Source: a virus
Lineage: Duplodnaviria > Heunggongvirae > Uroviricota > Caudoviricetes > Ackermannviridae
Reading direction: 5' to 3' (one strand)
Length of the DNA stretch: 64,000 bases
IMG/VR virus record: IMGVR_UViG_2974596396_000001
Coordinates: 88,254-152,253 of that record
The notes under the pieces are model-generated. The model was given only the letters and a program-made list of their open reading frames with translations, was not told where the DNA came from and did no database searches. Positions 8,154-47,821 of the stretch are shown here, piece after piece; the stretch's first letter is position 1, and each line of letters begins with the position of its first letter. The position numbers and the translations under genes were made by a program.

Positions 8154-8882
8154 ATGAACGCACAAATCTACGATGTCCTTTCCTCTGGTAATGCATTTAG
8201 CAACCCGCTTCCGTCCCTCTCCGGACCCTCACAGGATTTAATCACCAGTGGTAGTACCAATATACCATTGATAACTGCCAACGCGACTCCGGAGATGCAG
8301 GCGGCTATGGTTGCTGGTGGACTAACACCAGAAAAACTCACAGCAGCCACCACCATGTATAGCGCCGCCAACACGGGGATAACGACACTGAACACATATG
8401 GCGACCAAAGTATCAATGACGCGTATTCTCGCATCGGTACTTCCGTGTCATACAAATCAGGTCTGAAGGGTATATCACGAGAGCCAAACAATTGTGATTT
8501 GATCAACAAGGCTTTTGGTGTTGTTCAGGATTTAGGACGCCAATGGCTGAATGCTATGGAAGGTGCTCTACAGACCGTAACAAACAAGATATCGGAATTG
8601 TATGACATGATTATGGAAGGTGCCTCAGAAGGGATGGCAAAACTACAGCAATTGGCTGCTGAAGTAACAGGACATATCAATGAGGCAATAACCGCCGTCA
8701 ATGGAGTTATAAACGATATCACCGATGGGATAGCTGCAGAACTTGCTCATATTGAAAGTATGATCAAAGAATGTCTAAACTTCTCTTTTGCGAATGTTCT
8801 TGGAGAATGGGCTAAAGATCTCTGTGCTGGAGGCGTTATTGATAAAATAGGGACTCCAGAATTAAAAGAGTCCCTGAAATAA
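8154..8882 (+). CDS. Late protein, probably virion structural
   Basis: Lies downstream of a consensus late promoter. No recognisable catalytic motif. Confidence 0.5.
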   Translation: MNAQIYDVLSSGNAFSNPLPSLSGPSQDLITSGSTNIPLITANATPEMQAAMVAGGLTPEKLTAATTMYSAANTGITTLNTYGDQSINDAYSRIGTSVSYKSGLKGISREPNNCDLINKAFGVVQDLGRQWLNAMEGALQTVTNKISELYDMIMEGASEGMAKLQQLAAEVTGHINEAITAVNGVINDITDGIAAELAHIESMIKECLNFSFANVLGEWAKDLCAGGVIDKIGTPELKESLK

Positions 8883-9503
8883 TCAATGTCTAGCGGGGAG
8901 AACTCCCACTGGTTCGATACCTTCCATCACCAGGGAGTTCACCCCAACATCACTCATTCGAATCCATACTTTACCGCCTGGTCTTATTTCATAGATGTTC
9001 ATTTCATTACCCACAGCAGATCCATTAACGAAAACACCCTGAGTGGCAATTCGGATCGGAGATTTGGTGTTATTAACTATCTGAAATGATATTGCAACGT
9101 CTCTGGTGATTTCTACGTCCCTTGCTTGAGTATTCCTTCTGAGTTTGTCAAAGAAAGAAGGGTTGAAAGTCGCTATGATGCTATTATTCTGAGAGTAATA
9201 AATACTTGCGGATAGATATGGGATCTTTCCTTCGTCACCTTTCCTCAATAGGGGAATCGTGGTTTTCCAGTATGGTCTCAGTGACTGGTTGTTATCATCA
9301 AAACAACCAACAGCTTGAAGAGTCTGGAAGTTCTGAAAATCAGATACTACTTGATTCAGAATATTTTTATTGCATTTATCAATGTCGGCTGAGATGTTAA
9401 CAGGTATGGTTCTGATTTCAGGATCCCAGAGGTCGGTTACAGAAATGACGGACGTGACAAAGATACGGCAACTTGTGAGTGCAAGCACCATTATCATCGT
9501 CAT
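8883..9503 (-). CDS. Putative lipoprotein on the opposite strand
   Basis: 232-aa minus ORF. The internal start MTMIMVLALTSC has a lipobox LTSC. The ORF-track first M is a non-ATG codon. Confidence 0.5.
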   Translation of the reverse strand: MTMIMVLALTSCRIFVTSVISVTDLWDPEIRTIPVNISADIDKCNKNILNQVVSDFQNFQTLQAVGCFDDNNQSLRPYWKTTIPLLRKGDEGKIPYLSASIYYSQNNSIIATFNPSFFDKLRRNTQARDVEITRDVAISFQIVNNTKSPIRIATQGVFVNGSAVGNEMNIYEIRPGGKVWIRMSDVGVNSLVMEGIEPVGVLPARH

Positions 9504-9566
9504 GATCCATTTTCTGAATCCGCGTATCAGGAACACTAAAACGTTCTCCACAGCAAAGGTGCTAAC

Positions 9567-10064
9567 ATGACAGGTGTACAATTCAAAAACGAAAATCCTA
9601 ATTTCGCGGCTTCCGATAAATGGCGCTTAACTATCGGAGACCTGATATTGCTTACTCGTTCAATACATGACTTCAGTATTCCTGGAGTGTATTCTGAAGG
9701 TATCGAGGGACCATCCCCTGGCGATGTGCTCAACTCCATACCTTCAGAACGTCTCACGTATGACCCCATCGTATTTACGTTCGTTATCGATGAGAGTTGG
9801 TACAACTGGGAACAGATTTACAATTGGATTGCGTCCAATGCTGGATCTGATTTAGCTGTTAGCCGTGACATCACCATCGACCTTCTTGATAACATGAATC
9901 GACCTGTTGGTCTACAATTGTTGTTGGAAGAAGCCCGTCCCACAGCTTTGGACAACGTATTGGTGGATGTGGATGCTGCGGTTCCCCAACTGGTCACGAC
10001 TGTCACGTTCAAATATTTGAAACTGACTCCGACTCGCGTCACCCGCGAAATTGATAAACAATAA
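9567..10064 (+). CDS. Hypothetical protein
   Basis: ORF with RBS. Confidence 0.5.
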   Translation: MTGVQFKNENPNFAASDKWRLTIGDLILLTRSIHDFSIPGVYSEGIEGPSPGDVLNSIPSERLTYDPIVFTFVIDESWYNWEQIYNWIASNAGSDLAVSRDITIDLLDNMNRPVGLQLLLEEARPTALDNVLVDVDAAVPQLVTTVTFKYLKLTPTRVTREIDKQ

Positions 10065-13553: not shown

Positions 13554-14222
13554 ATGCAAGAGATCACTCTCTCCGAACGCACTTTACAACTGCTGGCTAA
13601 CTTTGAAACCATTTGCCCTTCTATCGTTCTGGCACCTGGTAAAAAGCTGCGCACGGTTAACGATTCCAGCACCGTCATCGCTATTGCCGATATTGACGAA
13701 GACTTCCCGTTTGAATTTCCTATTCTGGATCTGACCAAACTTCTGGCCATTCAGCGTCTGCCTAGTTTCAAAGGCGGTAAAATCGAAATGTCGGAAGACC
13801 ACATTTTACTGAAAGGTGAAAACTCTCAGCTGCAATTCTGGCGCTCAGCAAAAGAATTGACTGTCGTTCCTGCCGACAGCATTGATCTCCCGTCCGTTGA
13901 ATTCGAAGCGACGGTCACTCCTGAAAAAATGAAAGAGCTGACTCGCGCCTGTTCCACCCTGGGCCACAAAACTGTTCGTCTGGTCGCCAGCGGCGGTAAA
14001 ACTCGTCTGGTTGGTACGACTACGACTATCGATAATTCCAACGATTACACCGTTGAATTGGGTGAAACTGCTCTGGCTGATTTCGCTATGCCTGTCGACG
14101 TTGTTAACCTGAAAATGATCGAAGGCAACTATGTGATCCGCGCCTGTGCTGAAATGCAGCTTGTCAACTTCCAGTCGGCCGATGGCACCATCAACTACTA
14201 CGTTGGTATGCAGCTGGATTAA
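13554..14222 (+). CDS. 45: Sliding clamp gp45
   Basis: Length and N-terminal pattern match T4 gp45 (L-NF-I). Followed by gp44 and gp62. Confidence 0.85.
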   Translation: MQEITLSERTLQLLANFETICPSIVLAPGKKLRTVNDSSTVIAIADIDEDFPFEFPILDLTKLLAIQRLPSFKGGKIEMSEDHILLKGENSQLQFWRSAKELTVVPADSIDLPSVEFEATVTPEKMKELTRACSTLGHKTVRLVASGGKTRLVGTTTTIDNSNDYTVELGETALADFAMPVDVVNLKMIEGNYVIRACAEMQLVNFQSADGTINYYVGMQLD

Positions 14223-14302: not shown

Positions 14303-15292
14303 ATGTCCAACATCACTATCGTTACAGACCAATACGCGTGGGAAAACAAATATCGTCCTGATAATTTAGACGAGATCGTTCTCCCCTCAGACGTCCGTGC
14401 CAAGATCCATGGTTATGTTACCTCTGGTAACGGAAACATCCCCTCTATGCTGTTCTACTCCCCTCAGCCTGGTACGGGTAAAACTACTTCTGCTCTGGCA
14501 GTGTGCAACGAAATCGGTTGTGTGAAACCTCTGATGATCAACGCATCGCTTGACAACAGCATTGATGTGATTCGCGATCGTGTTATTCAATATGCTACTG
14601 GCGTCAGCGTTTTCGGTGGCCGGAAAGTCGTCATCCTGGACGAAGTTGAGCGTCTTTCTATGGCAGCGCAGGAATCGTTGAAAGGTATCGTGGAAAAGGT
14701 ATCCAAGAACTGTTCGTTTATCTTGACCACCAATGCAAAACAGCGTGTCAATGAGCCTCTGCGTTCTCGTTGTCGTGAAATTGATTTTATCTGGTCTGAA
14801 AAAGAAGCCGACGAAGTTAAACTTCAATTCATGCGTCGTTGCGCCACTATCCTGACGGAAGAAGGTATCCCATACGAAGCTGGTGTTATTGCATCGATTG
14901 TCAAATCTTATTTCCCTGACAACCGCAAGATTATGGGAACCCTTCAGGATAATGCCACCACGTTTGGTAAAATCGATGAACGTGCTTTGGCTCAGGTGAA
15001 AGCAGGTGAATTCCAGGCGCTGGTCGATTTCTTAAAGGCCAATGATTGGGCTGGCATGAAGCAATGGGTGACTGACAACCAAAACTATATTACAGAGGAC
15101 TTCTACTCTCGTTTCTTCCATTTCTGTGTCCCACAGAACAAAGAGAAGACTCCTTTGATTCAGAACGAATCTATCCCAGATTTGGTCTGCGTTTGTGGTC
15201 AGTCACAGATTGAACATCGTTCAGTTGGAGACGTCTGGTTACACGGCGTTTACTTCCTGACCAACGTCATGCTCAACATCAAGTGGAAGTGA
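14303..15292 (+). CDS. 44: Clamp loader large subunit gp44 (AAA+)
   Basis: The Walker A SPQPGTGKTT is nearly identical to the T4 gp44 Walker A SPSPGTGKTT. DExx box ILDEVE. Confidence 0.9.
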   Translation: MSNITIVTDQYAWENKYRPDNLDEIVLPSDVRAKIHGYVTSGNGNIPSMLFYSPQPGTGKTTSALAVCNEIGCVKPLMINASLDNSIDVIRDRVIQYATGVSVFGGRKVVILDEVERLSMAAQESLKGIVEKVSKNCSFILTTNAKQRVNEPLRSRCREIDFIWSEKEADEVKLQFMRRCATILTEEGIPYEAGVIASIVKSYFPDNRKIMGTLQDNATTFGKIDERALAQVKAGEFQALVDFLKANDWAGMKQWVTDNQNYITEDFYSRFFHFCVPQNKEKTPLIQNESIPDLVCVCGQSQIEHRSVGDVWLHGVYFLTNVMLNIKWK

Positions 15293-15296
15293 TATT

Positions 15297-15719
15297 ATGG
15301 CCGCTCCGTCACTGTTCGATTACCTGGGTGCTCTGAACAGCACCAAAGAGAATCTGTTGTTGACCGAAGACCCCGAAATCAGAAAGGCATTTGATCCTTT
15401 CATGACTCGGCGCGGCCTTGCCCAGAGTAAAGACACGTTGGTGGTTGCAGAACGAATGAACCACTTTCATGCCATTACTCCTTGGATGCAATGGAACCTT
15501 GCGTTTCATAGCATTCCGGCGAAACGCCGTTATGATAAATGGTCTAAGAAAGGAGCCATGGACCCTGATGTAAAATTGATTTCCGAGTATTACTACATCA
15601 GTCCTGAAAAGGCTTCTGAATATGTTCGATTCCTGCCGAAAGAAGTCCTGGCTGAAATCAAGGCGAAGGTCGAACGTTCTAACAGCAACGAAAAAGCTAA
15701 ACCGCGCAAGGCTAAGTAA
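15297..15719 (+). CDS. 62: Clamp loader small subunit gp62
   Basis: SIPAKRRYDKWSK matches the T4 gp62 block AVPRGKRYGKWAK. Immediately follows gp44. Confidence 0.7.
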   Translation: MAAPSLFDYLGALNSTKENLLLTEDPEIRKAFDPFMTRRGLAQSKDTLVVAERMNHFHAITPWMQWNLAFHSIPAKRRYDKWSKKGAMDPDVKLISEYYYISPEKASEYVRFLPKEVLAEIKAKVERSNSNEKAKPRKAK

Positions 15720-15748
15720 TTCAAATAATTGTTAAAGGGGTATGAGTC

Positions 15749-16213
15749 ATGGCGCGTAATACGCTGGACATCTTAAAACTTTCAGCTGTCAACGATGAGG
15801 CCAGCATTGTTGACTGTATGGTTGAAGTTCAATTGAACCAAGACAAACCAGGGATTTTCCTGGGTATCAAGGAAACGCTGAGTCGGATAGGGGTTAACAC
15901 TCGTCAAGAGCCTAACACCTTGTATCAAACGTGCCATATCTTGCATAAATTTGGCAGATATCACATCGTGCATTTCAAGCATTTGTTCATGCTAGATGGG
16001 CACTACAACGGCTTTACGCGTGAAGATGTCCTGCGTATGAATCGGATTATACGGCTTCTGGAGCAATGGAATATGGTTAAGATCTTGCATCCGGAACAAA
16101 TAACCGAAGTGGCTGACATGTCTCGGATCAAAGTTGTAAAACATGACCAAGTTTCTGAGTGGAAATTGGTTCCAAAATACACTATTCGCCCAAGTCGGGC
16201 AAAAAGCGAATAA
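15749..16213 (+). CDS. regA: RegA translational repressor
   Basis: TLSRIGV-LYQTCHILHKFGRYHIVHFK and the C-terminal EWKLVPKYTI match T4 RegA. Confidence 0.85.
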   Translation: MARNTLDILKLSAVNDEASIVDCMVEVQLNQDKPGIFLGIKETLSRIGVNTRQEPNTLYQTCHILHKFGRYHIVHFKHLFMLDGHYNGFTREDVLRMNRIIRLLEQWNMVKILHPEQITEVADMSRIKVVKHDQVSEWKLVPKYTIRPSRAKSE

Positions 16214-16229
16214 CTGGAGTCGCTATATT

Positions 16230-17099
16230 ATGACAACTACATTTAATAAAAACGTGAGATTGAATTTGGCTTTTGGTAATGCGGCTGGAGATATTACAGC
16301 CCCTGACTTCGGTAAAATTCGCAATCAGGCCAAACTGGTTCTGGAAGAGACCCGCGAATTACTGGAAGCGGCTTATTTCGACCACGAGGTGAAAATTGAG
16401 TTCACTGCATCTCCGCGAGTCCTGAAAGAACCTGCTGTTGTCGACATCAAAGACATTATGCGCCAGATTCTGGACGCTCAGGGCGACATCACAACAGTCA
16501 ATGACGGCGTGGCACACATTGCTGGTTTCAACGGCGATGAGTGCTTGCAGCGTGTTTATGCCTCCAACATGAGCAAATTTATTCGCTCAGAAGATGAAGT
16601 CGGTCCGGCACTGGAATATTATTATTCACGCGGTTTCCCAGATGGCCAGTTACGCGTTGAAGGTGAATTCCCTCAGGCATGCATCAAAGTGAATGAGACT
16701 GTGATGTGGAATGGCAAAGAATATCCGAAAGGAAAATTCCTGAAAAACATGGCTGTGTTCAAAGAGCCTGATTTCTCTGATATGCTGACGAATACCCCTT
16801 CCCGTCAGATCAATGACATCGTTGCCAGCATGGCAATTGAAGAAGGTCAGGTATTTGTTGATGATATGAACGGCGTGGCGTTGGTATCTCCAAAAACGTT
16901 GGAAGTAATTCTTTCTATGGCAGTTGAAAAATCTTCTCGACCCGTAGATGTTAACGGCCAAATTGAAAGTTATGTGCCAGCGTATATCATTAACGATACC
17001 AATATGCCTAAGCTGTGTGGGGTGTGGGGTGCTAATGTTCGTGTATACGCGTGCGCACCTGTTCAAAACACTGTGACACACCTCTCTCGCTTCGATTAA
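16230..17099 (+). CDS. Hypothetical protein; possible all-alpha (MazG-like) NTP pyrophosphohydrolase
   Basis: EETRELLEA-EVK resembles the EExxE-E-D metal-binding motifs of MazG and T4 gp56. Weak call. Confidence 0.35.
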   Translation: MTTTFNKNVRLNLAFGNAAGDITAPDFGKIRNQAKLVLEETRELLEAAYFDHEVKIEFTASPRVLKEPAVVDIKDIMRQILDAQGDITTVNDGVAHIAGFNGDECLQRVYASNMSKFIRSEDEVGPALEYYYSRGFPDGQLRVEGEFPQACIKVNETVMWNGKEYPKGKFLKNMAVFKEPDFSDMLTNTPSRQINDIVASMAIEEGQVFVDDMNGVALVSPKTLEVILSMAVEKSSRPVDVNGQIESYVPAYIINDTNMPKLCGVWGANVRVYACAPVQNTVTHLSRFD

Positions 17100-17123
17100 T
17101 ATAATCCGTTATTCACTAAACAA

Positions 17124-17150
17124 CAGAGGCTATAATGGCCTCTGTTTTTG
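17124..17150 (+). terminator. Rho-independent terminator
   Basis: CAGAGGC-TATAATG-GCCTCTG followed by TTTTT. Confidence 0.75.
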
Positions 17151-17168
17151 TATTCTAGAGAGGATACC

Positions 17169-18365
17169 ATGAAAGATAAACCATATGACATCCCATATTG
17201 CGGTGTCCGTGAAGATAAAATCAAATCAGCCAAACCTGTGCTTAGTCCGACCCATACCCGCCTGTCTTACGAATGGATGAGCGAGCGCTATAAGATCCAC
17301 GTTCGAAAGGACGTCCAGCGTCTTCCTGCTCCTTGGACCAATAATCCTATACTACGGCAGGTCAAGTTCTGTAACGTCCGGAGAGAGCACGACAGGCAGT
17401 CTCTTAACCTGATCAACAACATCATCAACAACGATGCTCTGGGTATGGCAGACAAGATGTTTAACTGCGTGCTGTTCCGCATGTTCAACCTCTGGGATCC
17501 AATTCAGGCTATCGGCGGCGCGATGACGATCAAAGACTTCGCCAAGATCAACCTTGACGCAACCCGCGAACGACTTCAGAAGTTCGAGGCCGACGGCGGT
17601 AAGGTATTCACTAATGCCTTCAACACGGGCGGCCTGAAGCAATGCCTGGCTTTCCCTGAGCTGGTTGTCAACCACAAGGAGCAACGCTTCGGTGGGATGA
17701 TGGTGAATCTGATCTACAAAGATGGTTCAACCCAGAATATGGATTATAAGGAAGCCAAGGCAATTGCTGAAGCAGAGCCGGACTTCTACACCATTGAGGG
17801 TTGGGAGCCGTACATGCCGATGCGCGTCATCCGTTCTCTGAGGGCATTCGTCAACAAGCACCCTGATTACTTCGAGCGGCTGCTGGAATGCGAATCTCCG
17901 GATGAAGTCTACCAGGCCATGTACGACGAAATCGAAGGCTTGGGTCCATTCCTGGCCTATCAGATCTGGGTGGACTTTACGTACATTCCTGAGTATCCGT
18001 TCAGTGAGAACCATTTCACCATCGCTGGACCGGGTTGCCGCGCTGGGATCGACCTGTTGTTCCTGAACAAGGACGGCATGACGCATGAAGAATGTATCTT
18101 CTGGTTGCGAGATAATCAGGACGCGGTGTACTCCCAATATGGATATGTTCGCGAGCAATTCTGGTCAGCCGAAGAGCCTTGGGATCAGTGTATGAATGTT
18201 CAACAATTAGAAAACCACTTTTGTGAATTGTCGAAATATACCCGTTGTGTAGAGGCTTTACAGCAAGGTAAAAAACCACGCGGGAAGGTTGGATACGATG
18301 GGGAAGGACAACCTAAAGCGACGACATCTGGTTCTAAAAACCTACTAAATTTATTTAAAAAGTAA
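17169..18365 (+). CDS. Hypothetical 398-aa protein, possibly a nucleotide- or DNA-modifying enzyme
   Basis: ATG with GAGAGGA RBS. No P-loop. Placed next to the replication genes. The function is unknown from sequence alone. Confidence 0.5.
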   Translation: MKDKPYDIPYCGVREDKIKSAKPVLSPTHTRLSYEWMSERYKIHVRKDVQRLPAPWTNNPILRQVKFCNVRREHDRQSLNLINNIINNDALGMADKMFNCVLFRMFNLWDPIQAIGGAMTIKDFAKINLDATRERLQKFEADGGKVFTNAFNTGGLKQCLAFPELVVNHKEQRFGGMMVNLIYKDGSTQNMDYKEAKAIAEAEPDFYTIEGWEPYMPMRVIRSLRAFVNKHPDYFERLLECESPDEVYQAMYDEIEGLGPFLAYQIWVDFTYIPEYPFSENHFTIAGPGCRAGIDLLFLNKDGMTHEECIFWLRDNQDAVYSQYGYVREQFWSAEEPWDQCMNVQQLENHFCELSKYTRCVEALQQGKKPRGKVGYDGEGQPKATTSGSKNLLNLFKK

Positions 18366-18425
18366 CTTACTTTGTGAGTTAATAAAATATATTATAACAG
18401 GAACTTTCATTTTGGGGTTCCTGTT

Positions 18426-19349
18426 ATGTTTTATGAATTGTTGGTTTCTAAAGGCGGCAAACCGCATTTTGTCAAGAAGTATTTGAGGATGGTTCAATCT
18501 TTCAAATATTCTGATGGTGACTACACCGAATTACACCACATCCTTCCCAAGAGCATGTTCCCTGAATATTCCAAAGACAAGATCAATTTGACAAGACTTA
18601 CTGGCAGGCAACATTATCTTGCCCATGTGTGTTTGGCCTTGGCTTTCCCACACACGAGAATGGTGTATGCTGTGGTAGCTATGAGAAAGGGAGGAAGGAG
18701 AAATAAATCAGGGATTCGGTTTAATTCTCATTTGTATGAAAGTTTCAGAATTAAATTCAGTGAACAACTATCTTTACAATGGAAAGGGGTTTCTCGGTTT
18801 GTGGGTAAAGACAACCCAATGTATGGGAGAAGGGGAAAGAATAATCCCCAATATGGATATAAGAGAACTCCAGAGCAAGTCAAGAAAATTACCAAAGGAT
18901 TGATGAAAATCCATGAAAGGATGGCTTCTGATCCGGAATATAAAAGAGAAGTTTTAGATCAGCGTCGTGCCAATACGGATTTAAAGCAATTTTCTGAGCG
19001 TTCCCGCCAAGCAAAACTCGGGAAACTCAACCCAAATTATGGGAAGGACTTAACCAACTCATTCACACCAGAGCAACGCGCCAAACAGAAAGAAAACGCT
19101 CAGAAAGGCATGTTGGTTAAGATGCCCTGGGAGAAGGGTAAATGGAACCCAGAAAATGATGTATATTGGGAGAAAGCTGATCAATTCCTTGAAGCCCTGA
19201 AAACGATGAAACGTTCAGAAGCCCTCTTGTTTGTGTACGGAACAAAGGATTTGAAGGCGTTTAATGCATCTAGTGGGATCATCGAACGTTTCAATAAAGG
19301 GTGGGAACCATTAAAATGTGGTAAATGGTTAAAAAGGTACAAAGGATAA
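18426..19349 (+). CDS. HNH homing endonuclease with NUMOD-like repeats
   Basis: ELHHILPKS-HYLAH HNH core, plus repeated NPMYGRRGKNNPQYG modules. Free-standing gene. Confidence 0.7.
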   Translation: MFYELLVSKGGKPHFVKKYLRMVQSFKYSDGDYTELHHILPKSMFPEYSKDKINLTRLTGRQHYLAHVCLALAFPHTRMVYAVVAMRKGGRRNKSGIRFNSHLYESFRIKFSEQLSLQWKGVSRFVGKDNPMYGRRGKNNPQYGYKRTPEQVKKITKGLMKIHERMASDPEYKREVLDQRRANTDLKQFSERSRQAKLGKLNPNYGKDLTNSFTPEQRAKQKENAQKGMLVKMPWEKGKWNPENDVYWEKADQFLEALKTMKRSEALLFVYGTKDLKAFNASSGIIERFNKGWEPLKCGKWLKRYKG

Positions 19350-19353
19350 AGAA

Positions 19354-19578
19354 ATGAGCTGGAAATTGTTCAAACTGCGTAAAGCGACTGATGAGTTTCT
19401 TCTGAAAGCCCGTATGGAAGGACGTCTCGTGTACACTCCTTACCCAGGCACTACTCGGTTTTGCAGTACGCTGAGGAAACAGAAATCAGTTTCTGGGCCG
19501 AGACGTTTGATGAACCAGGGTATGTTGTCTTTTAACACGGGAGACCACAGACCGTGTGATGGCGGTCGGATTATCTGA
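19354..19578 (+). CDS. Hypothetical small protein
   Basis: ORF with RBS. Confidence 0.35.
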   Translation: MSWKLFKLRKATDEFLLKARMEGRLVYTPYPGTTRFCSTLRKQKSVSGPRRLMNQGMLSFNTGDHRPCDGGRII

Positions 19579-19695: not shown

Positions 19696-21714
19696 ATGGC
19701 AGAATTCAAACCCTTCGCAACGGCAGTTAATAACAACGTGCTGGCGATGTCCGCAACTGGTCTGTTCATGACCAATATCGATAAAGATGCTCTTTGGGAT
19801 CTGTATCTGGCATCTTTCCCTGCTGGTACCAACCCGCTTTACCGTGAGCGTACCGAGCACGACTGCACCTGCTGTAAACAATTCATCCGTAACATCGGCG
19901 GTGTGGTCACCATCGACTCCGACCTGAACTTAATTTCTATCTGGGACAACATTGATCTGGGTAATGAATATGACGTGGTGGCTGCGGCGCTGTCTGCGTA
20001 TGTCAAGCAACACGCAATCGTCGACGTGTACTTCAACGATACCAAGAAAGTCGGTGTTGAGTCGAATCACGAAATGAAAGACGGCAATGTCCGCACCTAC
20101 AACCACTTTCACACCGACCTGCTGGGTAGCTATGTTCTGCGTCCGGACGCAATCGCTTCGAAAAAAGGTGAAATCCGCCAGGCTATTGAATTGTTTGAAC
20201 GCGGTCTGCGTGAAATTACTCTGGAATCAGCTGAAATCGTTCTGGAACTGATTGACCAGAATTCTCTGTATCGCGGCGCAGAACACAAAGCAGCAGTGAA
20301 GGGATTTGTTGAAACCAAAAAGGCATATGAACAAGTCCCCGAATCAGCCCGTTCTCTTTGGGCATGGCATACTGGATACCGTTCAAACAATCATGTTCCA
20401 CACGGCATCCGTAACACAGTTATCGGCACTCTGCTGACTGATATCAGTGAAGGCGTGGAACTGGAAAAGGCCGTTAAGTCGTTTGAAACCAAAGTTGCCC
20501 CAGCGAACTACAAACGCCCGACGGCTCTGGTCTCCAAGTCCATGATCGAAAACGCTCAGAAAGAAGTGATTGCTCTCGGTCTGGAAGATTCGCTGGCGCG
20601 TCGTTATGCAGTTTATGACGACCTGACGATCAATAACGTTCTGTTTGCAGACCTGGCTGCTCAAAAAGCGATGGATCCATTCGCTCAACTGGCCGCCGAA
20701 GTGAAAACGCCGACCAAGTCGCTGGATAAAGTTGAAGAGATCGGCATTGACGACTTCCTGAGCAATATCCTGCCGAAAGCGCATTCAATGGAAGTGCTGG
20801 TTGAAAACTCGCATACAGGAAACCTGATGTCTCTGGTCGCTCCGGCTATCGCAGGTGCTCCTAACCTTTTCAAATGGGGCAACGGTTTCTCATGGTCATA
20901 CAACGGCGAAGTGGCCGACTCCATCAAAGAGCGTGTGAAAGCGGCTGGCGGTAAAGTCGACGGGTTCCTCCGTGTATCCCTGGCCTGGCATAACAACGAT
21001 GACCTCGATCTGCATATGTTCTTTAACAATATGGAACATGTGTACTTCCGCGATCGTCGTTCAATGACTGGTGCACATCTCGATATCGACATGAACGGTA
21101 TGGACGGCATCGACCCGAACCGCTCTCCGGTAGAAAACATCATCTTCACTGATGAAAGAAAGTTGCGTGACGGTGAATATCGTTTTGAGATTCACAACTA
21201 CAACCAACGTGAAAAGATCGACGAAGGGTTTGAAATTGAAGTTGAATACAAAGGCGCTACGCAACGTTTCAGCCACAATGGGTTAAAAGACCAGGGGCGC
21301 ATCACTGCCGTCGTTCTGACTGTTAAAGACAAACAAGTCGTTAGCATCAAGTCCGAGCTGGCGAATGTTGATAAATCCAAAGAAATTTGGGGCATTAAGA
21401 CAGCGACCTTCCAGAAGGTACAACTGGTCCTGAACTCACCGAACCATTGGGATGGTGAACAAACTGGCAACAAGCACGTCTTCTTCATCCTGGAAGGTTG
21501 TGCAAATCCTGAAGGTACTCGTGGTTTCTACAACGAATATCTGAAGCCGGAACTGGATAAACATCGTAAGGTTTTTGAAATGTTGGGTAGTAAAATGAAA
21601 GTCCAGCCGAATGAAAACCAACTGTCCGGTCTGGGATTCTCGACGACGCAACGCAACCACGTGTTCGTCAAAGTGTCCGGCGCGTTTAACCGTACTGTAA
21701 AAGTCATTTTCTAA
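19696..21714 (+). CDS. Large hypothetical protein (672 aa)
   Basis: Long ORF with GAAGAC RBS. No motif I can assign. The minus-strand ORFs inside it are spurious. Confidence 0.6.
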   Translation: MAEFKPFATAVNNNVLAMSATGLFMTNIDKDALWDLYLASFPAGTNPLYRERTEHDCTCCKQFIRNIGGVVTIDSDLNLISIWDNIDLGNEYDVVAAALSAYVKQHAIVDVYFNDTKKVGVESNHEMKDGNVRTYNHFHTDLLGSYVLRPDAIASKKGEIRQAIELFERGLREITLESAEIVLELIDQNSLYRGAEHKAAVKGFVETKKAYEQVPESARSLWAWHTGYRSNNHVPHGIRNTVIGTLLTDISEGVELEKAVKSFETKVAPANYKRPTALVSKSMIENAQKEVIALGLEDSLARRYAVYDDLTINNVLFADLAAQKAMDPFAQLAAEVKTPTKSLDKVEEIGIDDFLSNILPKAHSMEVLVENSHTGNLMSLVAPAIAGAPNLFKWGNGFSWSYNGEVADSIKERVKAAGGKVDGFLRVSLAWHNNDDLDLHMFFNNMEHVYFRDRRSMTGAHLDIDMNGMDGIDPNRSPVENIIFTDERKLRDGEYRFEIHNYNQREKIDEGFEIEVEYKGATQRFSHNGLKDQGRITAVVLTVKDKQVVSIKSELANVDKSKEIWGIKTATFQKVQLVLNSPNHWDGEQTGNKHVFFILEGCANPEGTRGFYNEYLKPELDKHRKVFEMLGSKMKVQPNENQLSGLGFSTTQRNHVFVKVSGAFNRTVKVIF

Positions 21715-22183: not shown

Positions 22184-22558
22184 ATGAAACCTGTCATCTG
22201 TGATTACTGCGGCCTTCCTGCCAAATACGTCAGTGGTGATGTACTCTACCCTCATCGCCCAGATCTACACAAACTGAAGTTCTGGGTATGCTCGCCATGC
22301 GACGCTCGTGTGGGTTGCCATACCCATGGGGATGGTAGACAACCTCTGGGAAGGATGGCGAATGCCGCTCTCCGTGCTGCTAAGCAGGAAGCTCATAGGT
22401 CGTTTGACCCTATCTGGAAAAGTGGGCAGAGGAGCAGGAGTGATGCTTACAGCTGGCTGGCTCATAATCTGGGGATCAAGAAGCGCGATTGCCATATCGG
22501 CTTGTTCGATATCGTCATGTGCCGTAAAGTAGTGGAGGTCTGTAAACAAATATCATAG
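22184..22558 (+). CDS. Zinc-finger protein (DUF3268-like)
   Basis: CDYCGLPA-YPHRPDL-FWVCSPCDARVGCH pattern of two C-x-x-C pairs. Confidence 0.45.
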   Translation: MKPVICDYCGLPAKYVSGDVLYPHRPDLHKLKFWVCSPCDARVGCHTHGDGRQPLGRMANAALRAAKQEAHRSFDPIWKSGQRSRSDAYSWLAHNLGIKKRDCHIGLFDIVMCRKVVEVCKQIS

Positions 22559-22566
22559 GATAACAC

Positions 22567-23439
22567 ATGACAACTCGTACTGGCATCAAACTCACTCCTG
22601 AAGTCCTGAAGTCACATATCGCTGAGGTGATTTACGAAGACCGCGAAGTCGGCGGTCACCGGGCTATCACTTGTCATTTCAAGATGGATAACGGCTTCGT
22701 CGTTCACGGCACCAAGCCCAGCACATCCATAGACCCGGCCAACTTCGATGAAGCCCTGGGCAAAGAGATTTCCTACAATAACACCTTCGACCAGCTGTGG
22801 CAGCTGGAGGCGTACCGGGCGCTTGTTGAACAAGATCTGTTGGCCAAAGCCACGGAAACGGCAGAGATCCGGATCGATCAATACGCTGTTGAACGTAGCG
22901 CCCTCTGTCCGGCCTATCACCTCGGCTTCAATGTGATGATTCAGGACGTGATGTTCAGAGCGGAAAATGGCGAGCGCTTCTTGGCGTCTTTCGTTTGTGG
23001 GCCGGATGACATGGAACTTGTTGTTGACTCTCACAACGCCAAATCTCGTAAGGCTGTTAGTGATTTCCTGCGCGCCAACTCCAAACTCGATCTCACTTAT
23101 TCGCCATTGGTTCTGCGCATCGCCAAGATTTGTCATGAAGCCAACCGCGCATACTGCAAGTCTGTTGGTGACGACTCTCAACTGCCTTGGGAACAATCTC
23201 CGGCCTGGCAGCGTGAGAGCGCTTGCAAAGGTGTTATCTTCCATCTCACTGGTGATCGTAAGCCCAGCGAATCGCATGAGAGCTGGATGGCGGAGAAGGA
23301 GGCTGAGGGATGGGTGTATGGCCCAGTCAAAGACCCTCAGACCAAGCAACACCCTTGCATGGTTCCGTATGGAGAACTCCCGGTACAACAACGCTCCAAA
23401 GATTATATTTTCAAATCCATTGTAGACTCCTTTAAATAA
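22567..23439 (+). CDS. RyR-domain protein
   Basis: The C-terminal WMAEKEAEGWVYGPVKDPQTKQHPCMVPYGELPVQQRSKD matches the RyR (ryanodine-receptor) domain consensus. Confidence 0.6.
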   Translation: MTTRTGIKLTPEVLKSHIAEVIYEDREVGGHRAITCHFKMDNGFVVHGTKPSTSIDPANFDEALGKEISYNNTFDQLWQLEAYRALVEQDLLAKATETAEIRIDQYAVERSALCPAYHLGFNVMIQDVMFRAENGERFLASFVCGPDDMELVVDSHNAKSRKAVSDFLRANSKLDLTYSPLVLRIAKICHEANRAYCKSVGDDSQLPWEQSPAWQRESACKGVIFHLTGDRKPSESHESWMAEKEAEGWVYGPVKDPQTKQHPCMVPYGELPVQQRSKDYIFKSIVDSFK

Positions 23440-43563: not shown

Positions 43564-45171
43564 ATGGCCATCCCATCTTTCTTGAACTTTCTTGAAGAGT
43601 CTAAACAATTAGACGAAGCGTTTAACTCATCCCCGTATGAATTGACATTCGGAAAGAAGAACGCTGGTGACATTTTCTTCACATTTGTTGATGAAGACGA
43701 AAAAGAATTCCGTATTCAATTCTATACTCCACAAGGTCTAGGCAAGAATGTTCGCCAAGTCTTTATCGGTCAGAAGCGTGGTTCAACCTATCCAGACGCA
43801 ATCGGTCGTTTCAAGAATCCGATGCGTGTTATCGCATCCATGATTGAAGCAACAAAGCAATTCATGGCGACGCCTTTGGGTAAAACCATTGACGGCTTTG
43901 CAATTAACTTCTCCAAGAAAGCATTGGAGCGTGGTGTTACCCTCCTGCCGAAGATCATCCGTCAGTCCGGCCTGAAGCAGAAGCTCAATGTCATGGACCT
44001 GACGTATACCCCTATCCCTGATCGTGCATTCGTATGGGTTGTGCGTAAAGGTAAGGATCCTGCTCAGGTATTCGATGGTCCGAAAATGAAAGGTGTCACC
44101 TGGGATGACCCAGATAAGGTTGGTGATGTTCCGGTTCAGAACAATACTCCGGATGTGGGGGCTTCATCTTCTGTTGATGATTCCAACGGATGGAAATTAA
44201 CTTCAAACGGGGATCAGCCCATGTTGATATGGGTTGGTAAGGAGAGAGGCCGCATGGTCACGGCAAATATCGCTCCCCACTACGATGTGCCAGGCATGTA
44301 TGTTGGTGCATACATGAATGAAAAATCTGTACGTGGACAAAGCGCCGATTTTATTGCTAGTCAATTGAAATTACCGCAAGTCCCTATCGGTGTCCTGAAT
44401 GATTTCACGAAAATGGCAAGCAAATTCTGGAGTACCCAAGCCGGGGAAGTCGTAAACTCCAAAACCTTAAATATCCCAAAAAATGCTTTAGTCTTTGGTG
44501 AGACTATCAACGGTATGTCCATCAGTTGGAGTGGAATCGATTTCCCTAAAAGTGGGAAGTACGCTGATGCTATAATGACCACGAACATCATATTTGATTA
44601 CATTAACATCAAGGCAAAGTTTACCCCTATGGTTAATCAAAAAGGGCGAACTTTAAACAAACCAATAAGTTATGAAATCCGTTTGAAGAAAGATATTGTT
44701 CAATCCATGATCGATGAAATCTCATCAAAAATGGAATATCTTTCCAGAAACCTCCAACAGTTGAATAGTCAGGCATACAACCCAAACCAGGTTTTCTTGA
44801 ATGATATAACCATCACGGATAAAGGTGAAGTGATTTGGAACGATTACAACTTGTCTGACGGCAAAGTTACACAAATTATGCTGTCCATGATAAGCGCAGA
44901 AAATAGACGCTTGGAGAAAGTGACAAACAAGCCGGATATCACATTACCAAAGAAACAAGCCGAAGTAGTAGAATTTATAAACCGGATGATTGATATTGAT
45001 CTCGGACCTTATTTGAGAGAACCCAAAAAACTTGATGTGGTATTATTTGACTCTTCTGAATTGTCGATAAACCAACTCAACAACATAGAACGCCTGGGAA
45101 GAGAAACAGGAAAATGGTCTCTTCAGTCAAACGGCGGTATGGGTCATGCACTATTTCTGAATGTTTGGTGA
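43564..45171 (+). CDS. Large hypothetical protein (535 aa)
   Basis: AGGAGA RBS. No motif I can assign. Confidence 0.55.
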   Translation: MAIPSFLNFLEESKQLDEAFNSSPYELTFGKKNAGDIFFTFVDEDEKEFRIQFYTPQGLGKNVRQVFIGQKRGSTYPDAIGRFKNPMRVIASMIEATKQFMATPLGKTIDGFAINFSKKALERGVTLLPKIIRQSGLKQKLNVMDLTYTPIPDRAFVWVVRKGKDPAQVFDGPKMKGVTWDDPDKVGDVPVQNNTPDVGASSSVDDSNGWKLTSNGDQPMLIWVGKERGRMVTANIAPHYDVPGMYVGAYMNEKSVRGQSADFIASQLKLPQVPIGVLNDFTKMASKFWSTQAGEVVNSKTLNIPKNALVFGETINGMSISWSGIDFPKSGKYADAIMTTNIIFDYINIKAKFTPMVNQKGRTLNKPISYEIRLKKDIVQSMIDEISSKMEYLSRNLQQLNSQAYNPNQVFLNDITITDKGEVIWNDYNLSDGKVTQIMLSMISAENRRLEKVTNKPDITLPKKQAEVVEFINRMIDIDLGPYLREPKKLDVVLFDSSELSINQLNNIERLGRETGKWSLQSNGGMGHALFLNVW

Positions 45172-45195
45172 AACTGACTGGACCTTGAACAGAAT

Positions 45196-45216
45196 AAAGC
45201 CCCTTCGGGGGCTTAT
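45196..45216 (+). terminator. Hairpin (weak T-tract)
   Basis: AGCCCC-TTCG-GGGGCT. Confidence 0.4.
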
Positions 45217-45221
45217 AAATA
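45214..45221 (+). promoter_or_regulatory. T4-type late promoter TATAAATA
   Basis: Exact octamer 24 nt upstream of the ATG at 45246. Confidence 0.55.
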
Positions 45222-45245
45222 ACTGAAATCCCCGAGGAGATTAAG

Positions 45246-45815
45246 ATGAAACCGTTCATTCAGTATTTCAACGAGCAAGCTGCTCAGCCTCAGACCCATG
45301 CTGGTGTCCAGGGCAAAAGCGTATCCATCAAAAGCCAAGCTGATGGAACATTGTGGTGCTCTGGAGCAGTCATCACCCAGATCACCCCCGACAATCAGGC
45401 TGATGTCTACAACCTGGAACTCACTGACGGCAACACCGCAAAAGTCAAACTGACACCAGATCAGACTCATGGCATCACCCAAGGCCAAGAAGTTGTTGCT
45501 GTCCACGATGGCTTCGAATTCTTCTTTGGTAAGTCGGCCGACAAAGGCCAGGTGACTGAAGGGTATGAAGCTGTCCTGAAGAAAATGGGACAAGACATGG
45601 CTAAAACGCTGGGTGCGAAAACAACTCGCATGAGCGGTCGTCAGGAGTTCGAATATGGTGGCATACCAGGAATTGGTAAGCTGGTGCACATCGAATTTGG
45701 TGGTGAAGACGAGCCGTATGTGATCGTTTCTGTGGGCGGCAAAGAAACAGACTTCAGCAAGGGTAAAACCATGGCTGCCGACATTGCCAAGTTCCTCGGC
45801 GTTAAACCTGTCTAA
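45246..45815 (+). CDS. Late protein, possibly a virion component
   Basis: Late promoter plus GAGGAG RBS. Confidence 0.5.
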   Translation: MKPFIQYFNEQAAQPQTHAGVQGKSVSIKSQADGTLWCSGAVITQITPDNQADVYNLELTDGNTAKVKLTPDQTHGITQGQEVVAVHDGFEFFFGKSADKGQVTEGYEAVLKKMGQDMAKTLGAKTTRMSGRQEFEYGGIPGIGKLVHIEFGGEDEPYVIVSVGGKETDFSKGKTMAADIAKFLGVKPV

Positions 45816-45824
45816 GGAGGTTGT

Positions 45825-46067
45825 ATGAAAGGGTTCCAGGACTTCCTCTTGAAGGAAGCAAAGGTCGACCACCGGGCGCTGGGTAAGCGCGGTCAGTATG
45901 ACATCACCGATGTTGGCCGCCCAACCAAAGGCGAACTGATCGACTACTACAACCGCAACGGCGACAAGCGACAAGGGAAAGTGAAGTCTGTGAACGCACA
46001 AGACGTCATGACCCTGACGGACACCGAAACGGGGGAAACCGTCAAGCTGTATCTGGTCAAGCCGTGA
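45825..46067 (+). CDS. Hypothetical protein, co-transcribed with 45246
   Basis: AAGGAGG RBS. Confidence 0.45.
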   Translation: MKGFQDFLLKEAKVDHRALGKRGQYDITDVGRPTKGELIDYYNRNGDKRQGKVKSVNAQDVMTLTDTETGETVKLYLVKP

Positions 46068-46071
46068 TTGC

Positions 46072-46102
46072 AATCCCCCTAAATACAGGGGATTTCTTTT
46101 TC
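46072..46102 (+). terminator. Rho-independent terminator
   Basis: AATCCCC-N9-GGGGATT followed by TCTTTTT. Confidence 0.8.
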
Positions 46103-46116
46103 TGAGGAAACAAATC

Positions 46117-46470
46117 ATGGTCAATGCGAGTATTTTCATCAACCGTGGACTGCTTGCTATAGCCCACTCTCATGCCCTCCACTTCGTTACAACGTCCTAT
46201 GCCAAGCACAAGGCACTCGGGGAGTTCTACGGGGAACTGGAGGACTTGCTGGATACCTTTACAGAGGCATATATCGGCGCGGGTGGTGTATATGTCCCAG
46301 GGTTTGAGAATATTAAACTGTACAACCCAGATCCTATATCGTATGTCAACAGCGTTGTTATCGACGTAAACGGAATTTATGGTCAATGCGACAGCCATCT
46401 TCAAAATACGCTCGATGAAATCAAAACTTTGTGCTATCAGACCATCTACAAACTGAAGCAATTGTCTTAA
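46117..46470 (+). CDS. Hypothetical protein
   Basis: ORF. Confidence 0.45.
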   Translation: MVNASIFINRGLLAIAHSHALHFVTTSYAKHKALGEFYGELEDLLDTFTEAYIGAGGVYVPGFENIKLYNPDPISYVNSVVIDVNGIYGQCDSHLQNTLDEIKTLCYQTIYKLKQLS

Positions 46471-46532
46471 CTCAATAGAACATCCTTCAGGTTATAATTT
46501 GCCCATTCGTCATCAATAGGATACAGATAACA

Positions 46533-47150
46533 ATGGGCAAAATATTCATACCTTCGCATTCAGAAGGTTGTCAGATCGCAGCAAAATATCTTCACAAGCA
46601 AATGAACTGTGGTGCTGTGTTTGTAGAACCAAATTCTTTTGATAATCGTGAATCCCCTGACGCCATCGGGTTCAGACCTGGGGGTTGTTCTATATTAATG
46701 GAAGTTAAAGTCTCCCGCGCCGACTTCCTGACAGACAAAAAGAAACCTCATCGCATGAATCCTTCAACAGGAATGGGGGCATACCGATTTTATGTTTGTC
46801 CTGCTGATGTGATCAAAGTTGAAGATCTCCCACCAAAGTGGGTATTATTATATTTCACTCCTCGGAAATCATTGAAGCCCGTTCACGTTCCGAATATGCA
46901 ATATTCTTCGTTATCTTCTCCGGAACATTATGCATCATATTTGTCTAAATCCTTGGGCAAAAGAAATCCTACAGATATCCCTCCTTACCTGTTAGGATAC
47001 AAGCAGATGTTGGAAGAATTCGCCCACTTTGAACGAAATCAAGTCGCAGAGCAGAATATTCTATATGGTGCATGGAGACAGCTTTGCATAGCTCAAAGTC
47101 GCGGTGTAAATTATAATGTGACAGAAGTATTCCAAAGGCCAAACATATGA
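46533..47150 (+). CDS. PD-(D/E)XK-fold (VRR-NUC/MmcB-like) putative nuclease
   Basis: SPDAIGF-ILMEVKVSR fits the PD-(D/E)XK motif. Confidence 0.4.
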   Translation: MGKIFIPSHSEGCQIAAKYLHKQMNCGAVFVEPNSFDNRESPDAIGFRPGGCSILMEVKVSRADFLTDKKKPHRMNPSTGMGAYRFYVCPADVIKVEDLPPKWVLLYFTPRKSLKPVHVPNMQYSSLSSPEHYASYLSKSLGKRNPTDIPPYLLGYKQMLEEFAHFERNQVAEQNILYGAWRQLCIAQSRGVNYNVTEVFQRPNI

Positions 47151-47821
47151 ACTATAAAAGGATACACGACTCCATAATTTCCAGGGCGGTTAATCGGTCA
47201 CTGCCTTCGGGTTACACAGAGAAACATCATATCATTCCTCTTTCCATGGGTGGTAAAGATAGGAAATTTAATATGGTGGTTTTGACAGCGTCAGAACATT
47301 ATATTGTGCATATGTTGTTGGCTAAGATGTTTGGTGAAGTTATGAACAAAGCATTTACCAAAATGAAACATCTTACATCCAATCCATCCAATAACAAGGA
47401 GTTTTCATTAAGAAGGGAAATGATATGCACTATTTCTGGAAACAACGCTAAAAATGAAAGAAACAGAAAGACTCATTCTGATAAAATAAAAGGCCGAAAA
47501 CATACAGAAATTACCAAGAAATCTATTTCGGATTCTATGAAAGGGGTTAATAACCCAATGAAGGGGACCAGTCCTTGGAGAAATCCGACTAATATAAAAC
47601 GGGGTTCTCATAAAAATTGGTTGATAGCGGATAAAATATATGACAAATGGTGTAAGAACAAATCTGTTAGAGTCATAGATTTACTCAATGGAAACGATAT
47701 GCAGACTTCGTATACGACAGTTACAACTATGAAATTGAAATTTGAAGCTGGTTGGGTTCCTAAAGAAGACGAAGATTGGATTATCTTTGTCAAGGAGAAC
47801 AAACATGAAATTTCTCGATGA
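47147..47821 (+). CDS. HNH homing endonuclease
   Basis: YTEKHHIIPLSMGG-N-VVLTASEHYIVH HNH core. Basic C-terminal DNA-binding half. Confidence 0.65.
   Translation: MNYKRIHDSIISRAVNRSLPSGYTEKHHIIPLSMGGKDRKFNMVVLTASEHYIVHMLLAKMFGEVMNKAFTKMKHLTSNPSNNKEFSLRREMICTISGNNAKNERNRKTHSDKIKGRKHTEITKKSISDSMKGVNNPMKGTSPWRNPTNIKRGSHKNWLIADKIYDKWCKNKSVRVIDLLNGNDMQTSYTTVTTMKLKFEAGWVPKEDEDWIIFVKENKHEISR

Follow-up and report, generated by a model that had tools for sequence, protein, structure and literature searches.

In phages that hypermodify the thymidine of their DNA, 5-hydroxymethyldeoxyuridine (5-hmdU) is converted in a sequence-specific way either to a hypermodified base or to canonical thymine, and the virions contain no 5-hmdU. 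The closest described system to the locus reported here is that of phage ViI. Five ViI lysates together rebuilt its hypermodified base 5-NeOmdU, one of them containing gp160, named 'aG/PT-PPlase1'; which of the five were necessary was left undetermined (Lee et al. 2018). In 2021 the same group accounted for the ViI chemistry with the kinases gp67 and gp243, the serine:DNA transferase gp247 and the pyridoxal phosphate (PLP) decarboxylase gp226, and gave gp160 no function in the pathway. Here we describe the ortholog of gp160 together with the gene in front of it, at positions 16230–18365 of a 64,000-nucleotide stretch of phage DNA (IMG/VR record IMGVR_UViG_2974596396_000001; the whole stretch is referred to as the window). 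The two genes are named ORF1 (open reading frame 1, 289 aa) and ORF2 (398 aa). The window is base-for-base identical (100%) to positions 88254–152253 of Salmonella phage Se-J (NC_049497), a Kuttervirus of the Ackermannviridae in the ViI-like group. In a megablast search with 15700–19400, Salmonella phages Se-H, Se-I, Se-J and Se-N are matched at 100% identity and Det7 at 96%.

ORF2 belongs to the family PF18723 and is the ortholog of ViI gp160 in this Kuttervirus. It matches this Pfam model with E=2.8e-83 and 280 bits (gathering cutoff 25), over profile positions 4–279 of 281. PF18723, formerly aGPT-Pplase clade 1, is now named HMUDK_hel (5-hmdU DNA kinase, helical domain); the GenBank record of phage Guerrero labels the ORF2 ortholog 'Pplase1 ... 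clade 1'. The ortholog in ViI is Vi01_130c (YP_004327501, note orf00160), with 78% identity over the full length. The gp numbers of Lee et al. correspond to the orf notes of NC_015296, as seen for gp67 (YP_004327432, orf00067), gp226 (orf00226), gp243 (orf00243) and gp247 (orf00247); gp160 is therefore Vi01_130c. The regA–MazG–gp160 synteny is the same in both phages, while a homing-endonuclease insertion lies 3' of the window copy only.

A sequence-only reading of the window had presented the 289-aa and 398-aa proteins as two unassigned enzymes and as candidates for nucleotide-pool or DNA-base modification, in a phage of a thymidine-hypermodifying lineage. Its coordinates are exact, and the RefSeq annotation of Se-J has the same two coding sequences. 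'Unassigned' does not hold, since ORF1 carries the annotation of a MazG-like pyrophosphatase, and for ORF2 there are the Pfam family and published ortholog given above. The EExxE motif seen in the 289-aa protein is present once, as E39-E40-T-R-E43. Walker A is absent from ORF1 and also from the 398-aa ORF2, for which the lack of a P-loop had been pointed out; no Pfam kinase model (PF18748, PF18747) matches ORF2 either. The proposed comparison with aGPT-Pplase/5-HMUDK profiles places ORF2 in the associated family PF18723. The guess at the lineage was right: Se-J carries orthologs of every ViI 5-NeOmdU gene, including, outside the window, those of the thyA-like dUMP hydroxymethylase homolog (74%), gp67 (90%) and gp243 (87.5%), as well as those of gp247 and gp226. 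The inferred role of the pair in the nucleotide pool or in base modification is supported, and both genes are already known as gene families and published orthologs. Their conservation in more than 280 phage records shows that they are genuine genes rather than chance reading frames. ORF1 runs from an ATG at 16230, preceded by a GGAG Shine–Dalgarno sequence, to a stop at 17099, and ORF2 from an ATG at 17169, preceded by GAGAGGA, to a stop at 18365. An ATG at 16143 and a TTG at 17148 were dropped as starts, because 16230 and 17169 have Shine–Dalgarno sequences and agree with RefSeq. The features of the two genes are:

16230..17099, plus strand: ORF1, 289 aa, predicted MazG/HisE-superfamily nucleoside-triphosphate (NTP) pyrophosphohydrolase, ortholog of ViI Vi01_131c/orf00161
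16230..16799, plus strand: putative N-terminal catalytic domain of ORF1, residues 1 to ~190, with E39-E40-x-x-E43, D82/D86 and K169/K172
16800..17096, plus strand: C-terminal domain of ORF1, residues ~191–289, present only in Ackermannviridae orthologs
17122..17146, plus strand: terminator-like hairpin in the ORF1/ORF2 spacer (11-bp stem, loop, T-run)
17169..18365, plus strand: ORF2, 398 aa, PF18723 protein, ortholog of ViI gp160
18027..18047, plus strand: predicted helix-hairpin-helix (HhH) loop of ORF2, G287-P288-G289-C290-R-A-G293
18210..18236, plus strand: candidate active-site motif of ORF2, E348-N349-H-F-C352-E353-L-S-K356, from conservation and the alignment with gp46

Judged by the company of its family in other phages, ORF2 very probably belongs to the thymidine-modification system. 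PF18723 is found in all six experimentally studied hypermodifying phages, namely PhiW-14, SP10, ViI, M6, PaMx11 and Acinetobacter phage SH-Ab 15599 (hereafter 15599); for PhiW-14 the evidence is a GenBank similarity note only, which likens gp72 to M6 ORF055. Fusions to the kinase exist in both orders. SP10 gp186 combines an HMUD1 kinase (35–193) with PF18723 (313–598), and a viral contig (L037, 4677–6521) encodes PF18723 (32–318) in front of the HMUD1 kinase (408–578). The C-terminal domain of SP10 gp186 has the same PW, NV.R..DR, GPGC and LE..CE.SKY motifs as ORF2, whereas ORF2 stands alone and is about 50 kb away from the gp67 ortholog. In other genomes the PF18723 gene is located directly 3' of a P-loop kinase gene, as in M6 (gp54–gp55), PaMx11 (gp49–gp50) and Microbacterium phage Koji (gp53–gp52). 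The kinase of Koji, a 39-kb siphovirus, belongs to a different family, PF18751, and its gene overlaps the PF18723 gene. Koji also encodes a divergent thymidylate-synthase (TS) homolog and a PRA-PH/MazG-like pyrophosphatase, and this minimal gene set (L052, 31304–38040) hints that actinophages of the cluster EA type have a thymidine modification still to be characterised. As a side observation, the contig with the reverse-order fusion carries a gene for a transporter of the betaine/carnitine/choline (BCCT) family at 8634–10004, about 2 kb 3' of the fusion, which might import a modification donor.

Within and around the Ackermannviridae the same association is seen. The regA–MazG–hel synteny, hel being the PF18723 gene, is kept in all enterobacterial Ackermannviridae loci examined (L011–L032). 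In a distant relative (L033) the HMUD2 kinase, a transferase of the ADDT family and hel are consecutive. Three further loci (L034–L036) have a cluster of polymerase, HMUD2 kinase, ADDT and hel, and a few kb beyond it HMUD1 kinase, dUMP hydroxymethylase homolog, dNMP kinase and dUTPase_2. In phage 15599, gene 00016 (L044, 8961–9926) adjoins the dUMP hydroxymethylase and matches PF18723 at 6e-40; the family goes unmentioned in the 2026 paper on 15599. The diaminopropane transferase (ADDT) of 15599 (L044, 4376–5251) lies behind 44-62-regA, in the place taken by MazG and PF18723 in Kuttervirus, so this slot is a recurrent home of hypermodification genes in the family. Elsewhere PF18723 genes adjoin enzymes of the nucleotide pool (an NT5C nucleotidase and a dCMP deaminase), and a pelagiphage study reported the TS homolog and 'aG/PT-PPlase1' as constant partners. 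A broadened ADDT profile detected no ADDT in the complete SP10 and Koji genomes, in both of which PF18723 is found; for SP10, Lee et al. (2018) also reported no second paralogue. In these two phages the step after phosphorylation has PF18723 as its only HhH-fold candidate. PF18723 is the one pathway-linked, universally retained gene without an assigned step.

An AlphaFold2 model of ORF2, calculated with 38 homologs, has a mean predicted local distance difference test score (pLDDT) of 88.7. It predicts a helix-hairpin-helix DNA-glycosylase fold, resembling the solved glycine:DNA transferase gp46 of phage PaMx11 (PUGT, PDB entry 8z2m). The overall fold and the GPG hairpin are common to ORF2, the HhH-GPD glycosylases (AlkA, Ogg, EndoIII, MutY) and the queuosine hydrolase QNG1/DUF2419. 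The HhH-GPD glycosylases have their catalytic Asp about 20 residues after the hairpin, while PF18723 has a conserved Cys–Glu pair instead. We aligned 14 family members from Salmonella, Pseudomonas, Acinetobacter and Bacillus phages and metagenomes: ORF2, ViI gp160, M6 gp55, PaMx11 gp50, 15599 gene 16, the C-terminal domain of SP10 gp186 and eight metagenomic sequences. Residues Arg40, Ile43, Pro55, Thr57, Phe67, Asn69, Arg72, Asp75, Arg104, Phe261, Tyr264, Asp269, Gly287-Pro288-Gly289, Cys352, Glu353 and Lys356 are invariant in all 14. Glu348 is kept in 13 of them, and Cys352 is the sole universally conserved cysteine.

These residues can be compared with the active site of the ADDT family (PF18724, formerly aGPT-Pplase clade 2), to which ViI gp247, M6 gp51 and PaMx11 gp46 belong and whose members are about 100 aa shorter than ORF2. 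In gp46 a metal held by Glu243 and Thr244 binds O4 of the flipped thymine, Trp146 serves as a clamp on the base, and the nucleophile that attacks C6 is proposed to be Cys247 (PMC11472151). For gp247 and gp51, the Cys and a Glu close to it have proved essential. When broadened profiles of PF18723 and ADDT were aligned with hhalign, Glu348, Asn349 and Cys352 of ORF2 fell on Glu243, Thr244 and Cys247 of gp46, and Phe261 on Trp146, in what is a marginal profile alignment (E=0.0012, 217 columns, probability 19%). This is suggestive, but no proof, of a distant homology between ORF2 and the ADDT family, and likewise suggestive of an equivalence of Glu348/Cys352 with the catalytic Glu243/Cys247, which comes from the sequence alignment alone. 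Single-sequence searches of ORF1 and ORF2 against PDB sequences found nothing, and phmmer with ViI gp247 against the same set did not recover gp46. The sole match of the ORF2 family profile to PDB sequences, WDR24, was rejected as spurious.

From this we propose a reaction for ORF2, as a Cys-dependent enzyme acting on 5-hmdU, or on its phosphorylated form 5-PmdU, in DNA, which we consider probable, with a good deal of doubt left. ORF2 would act alongside the 5-hmdU DNA kinase of the HMUD1 type (the gp67 ortholog); it would bind freshly replicated phage DNA, in which 5-hmdU stands in place of T, and flip out the base. Cys352 would add to the phosphorylated base at C6 with the help of Glu348 and Glu353. 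Phosphate (or water) would be expelled, perhaps with the aid of a metal, giving the same reactive exocyclic methylene as made by the ADDT enzymes, which would then be resolved; our preferred guess for the product is ordinary thymidine at sites that are not hypermodified. This is the most interesting candidate role for ORF2, because the route from 5-hmdU to thymidine 'is still unknown' (Lee et al. 2018), the virions are free of 5-hmdU, and M6 gp51 with borohydride makes thymidine from 5-PmdU. That PF18723 proteins form thymidine in this way, with the kinase, Cys352 and a reduction of the exocyclic methylene, is nevertheless doubtful, since no cofactor- or reductant-binding domain for a reduction step is visible in ORF2.

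ORF1 matches phrog_2144 'MazG-like pyrophosphatase' in PHROGs at 4.6e-136. As judged by homology it is a MazG/HisE-type all-alpha NTP pyrophosphohydrolase, which appears to keep a full set of metal ligands. Among 1.84 billion representatives searched exhaustively, 222 relatives were found, most of which cover only residues 1 to ~190. Within a set of 61 homologs, 28 match PRA-PH, 15 match MazG and 13 match MazG-like in Pfam. The ORF1 family profile matches DR2231 of Deinococcus radiodurans, the closest solved relative, at 1.9e-9, and with the PRA-PH matches this bears out the MazG/HisE relationship suspected in the sequence-only reading. ORF1 differs from DR2231 and Exiguobacterium Exig_1061 (PDB 3nl9) by the insertion of a beta-hairpin region and by a further domain, about 100 aa long, at its C terminus. 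The modelled N-terminal domain has the helical NTP-pyrophosphohydrolase fold, with pLDDT mostly above 85. The C-terminal domain keeps the motifs ESY.P.F and WG.W..N.R, with pLDDT below 50 for most of it; no relatives outside the Ackermannviridae were found, and its profile gave only noise against the PDB. Across the 61 homologs Glu40, Glu43, Asp86, Lys169 and Lys172 are invariant and Asp82 is kept in at least 90%, and because of this conservation we regard an active NTP pyrophosphohydrolase as highly likely. It would hydrolyse a pyrimidine deoxynucleoside triphosphate (dUTP, dTTP or dCTP) to the monophosphate and pyrophosphate, and so would help to replace dTTP by 5-hm-dUTP in the infected cell. 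That ORF1 serves the 5-hmdU pathway specifically is possible, at somewhat less than even chance.

Several findings weigh against this assignment of ORF1. Its own sequence matched no Pfam model, and its second acidic motif is D82-x-x-x-D86 in place of the canonical E-x-x-D. Members of its N-terminal domain family are also present in N4-like and Pakpunavirus phages, for which no modification of T is known. The one characterised dTTPase/dUTPase in this group of phages, gp18 of 15599 (PMC13458397), has the pool-remodelling role proposed here for ORF1, and 15599 is classified in the Ackermannviridae. However, gp18 consists of a dNMP-kinase-like domain and a dUTPase_2 domain and is not an ORF1 homolog; it is homologous to ViI 059c and 058c (Se-J gp212 and gp213). 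The idea of ORF1 as 'the' dTTPase/dUTPase was therefore downgraded, gp18 being the homolog of the separate dUTPase_2 gene (Vi01_058c/Se-J gp213).

ORF1 may instead be a general 'house-cleaning' or host-manipulating MazG, acting on non-canonical NTPs, dGTP/dCTP or alarmones, whose adjacency to ORF2 is a historical accident. We hold this to be the less favoured account, though a serious one. It agrees with the N4-like and Pakpunavirus homologs, with an adjacency to PF18723 that is limited to enterobacterial Ackermannviridae and with a terminator-like hairpin between the two genes. The phage would also not lack enzymes for the pool: three all-alpha NTP-pyrophosphatase-like genes are present in Se-J, namely ORF1, gp048 (L049, 26692–27273; 193 aa, 'MazG-like', unrelated to ORF1 at the profile level) and dUTPase_2 (L051, 6248–6799), the homolog of the proven dTTPase/dUTPase, which is located in a cluster of kinase, TS homolog and dNMP kinase. 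Se-J encodes a dCMP deaminase as well. On the other side, the title of the DR2231 paper describes that enzyme as exclusively dUTP-acting. PRA-PH/MazG genes related to ORF1 recur together with the kinase, PF18723 and the TS homolog (Koji gp42, 5.6e-13; PaMx11 gp62, 1.4e-6). PF18723 genes elsewhere adjoin the pool enzymes mentioned above, and the regA–MazG–hel synteny is conserved across the enterobacterial Ackermannviridae. Taken as a whole, the best explanation of the locus combines a Cys-dependent step of ORF2 on 5-hmdU/5-PmdU DNA with a pyrimidine-dNTP pyrophosphohydrolase in ORF1, a combination that we put slightly above an even chance.

ORF1 and ORF2 are adjacent on the same strand with a 69-nt spacer, and the hairpin in this spacer (17122–17146) speaks against a single unit. 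It has an 11-bp GC-rich stem, a 3-nt loop ATA, a TATAAT spanning the apex and a T-run behind it. The hairpin is conserved in the Kuttervirus relatives; Erwinia phage Bue1 (L023) has changes in both arms of the stem, with the pairing and the apex TATAAT kept. It may be a terminator, an attenuator, or a -10-like element combined with a terminator, and from its conservation we infer that ORF1 and ORF2 may form separate or attenuated transcription units. They are better described as neighbours with related themes than as an operon. Of the 'DNA-modification module' that the sequence-only reading had proposed, the modification part is supported, for ORF1 by context only as far as the thymidine pathway is concerned, while 'module' is a loose term in view of the hairpin and of an adjacency seen only in enterobacterial Ackermannviridae.

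For ORF2 the alternative is a non-enzymatic role, in which the protein is a DNA-binding, base-flipping accessory of the 5-hmdU kinase gp67 and raises the extent of phosphorylation or sets its sequence context. We consider this unlikely, yet several observations fit it. The kinase and PF18723 are fused in both orders and repeatedly adjacent, and the M6 kinase alone phosphorylated only ~23% of the 5-hmdU in vitro. An accessory role is also implied by the present Pfam name, which makes PF18723 a 'helical domain' of the kinase. Moreover, the family is dispensable for the chemistry in vitro: M6 gp54 and gp51 suffice without gp55, and the purified ViI kinase, gp247 and gp226 suffice without gp160, so that ORF2 differs from the ADDT enzymes in not being needed for amino-acid transfer. 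These points weigh against ORF2 as an enzyme, and so do the following. The literature on these phages reports no demonstrated activity of a PF18723 protein. The Pfam ADDT model (PF18724) does not match ORF2 even at E<=10, while it matches gp247 at 3.2e-58. With narrow profiles built from Ackermannviridae only, hhalign gave PF18723 and ADDT a probability of 0.6%, and the only aligned segment was MNVQQLENH-FCELSKY of ORF2 with INRLNFETSgACWLKKF of gp247; the broadened alignment described above, although better, is still weak evidence of homology.

Against a pure binding module stands the family-wide conservation of Cys352–Glu353 and Glu348 at the ADDT catalytic position, which would not be expected there. 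In SP10 and Koji, nothing else with an HhH fold is a candidate for the step that follows phosphorylation. The SP10 gp186 kinase domain works without the hel domain, which counts against the enzyme and also against the accessory. The Glu/Cys motif, the kinase fusions and the two genomes without detectable ADDT argue that ORF2 is itself an enzyme. A role as a true HhH DNA glycosylase that clears uracil, residual 5-hmU or damaged bases and has no part in modification is, despite the common fold, highly improbable, because the 14-member alignment has no conserved acidic residue between the GPG loop and Glu348, where the catalytic Asp of HhH-GPD enzymes would be, and has invariant Cys352, Glu353 and Lys356 instead, because the association with kinases, ADDT and dUMP hydroxymethylase is the wrong context for repair, and because a phage that builds its whole genome with hmU would kill itself by excising that base.

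The neighbouring genes are as follows:

13554..14222, plus strand: gp45-like sliding clamp; the ViI ortholog is annotated as Gp45 sliding clamp
14303..15292, plus strand: gp44-like clamp-loader ATPase, from the annotation of the ViI, Det7 and Se-J orthologs
15297..15719, plus strand: gp62-like clamp-loader subunit (Pfam Phage_clamp_A, 4.4e-11; phrog_225)
15749..16213, plus strand: regA translational repressor (Pfam Translat_reg, 4.1e-35)
18393..18428, plus strand: second terminator-like hairpin, 15 bp, overlapping the start codon of the homing endonuclease
18426..19349, plus strand: homing endonuclease, NUMOD3, MobE-like, phrog_655

The upstream order 45-44-62-regA and the homing endonuclease at 18426 are thus as the sequence-only reading had given them. 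In T4, gene 43 for the DNA polymerase follows regA. No DNA polymerase gene was found within the 64-kb window; that of Se-J is located at genome positions 44254–47250, adjoining the gp243 and gp247 orthologs. The homing endonuclease is part of an insertion of ~1.2 kb, together with a 74-aa reading frame at 19354–19578, which is absent from ViI, where the spacer is 113 nt. A homing endonuclease gene, gp73, likewise comes directly after the PF18723 gene gp72 of PhiW-14. Further downstream lies a 672-aa reading frame (19696–21714, plus strand; phrog_1735), which corresponds to two coding sequences in ViI and is labelled 'putative DNA-directed RNA polymerase' in phage Guerrero; no Pfam or NCBIfam model matched it. 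NCBIfam likewise had no model matching ORF1, ORF2 or the homing endonuclease. A DUF3268 zinc-finger protein (22184–22558, plus strand) is followed by a 290-aa protein with an N4 gp49/Sf6 gp66-family domain and a RyR domain (22567–23439, plus strand).

The locus itself is no discovery, as it comes from a published phage genome and both of its genes belong to named families. Its meaning lies in PF18723, which is retained in every hypermodifying phage examined, is fused to the kinase in both orders and carries what looks like the catalytic Glu/Cys of ADDT, and yet is dispensable for hypermodification in vitro. To our knowledge no enzyme has been assigned to the conversion of 5-hmdU to canonical T in DNA since this was described for SP10 and PhiW-14 around 1980. 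If PF18723 proteins do form thymidine, they would complete the pathway and add a new thymine-forming activity at the level of DNA.

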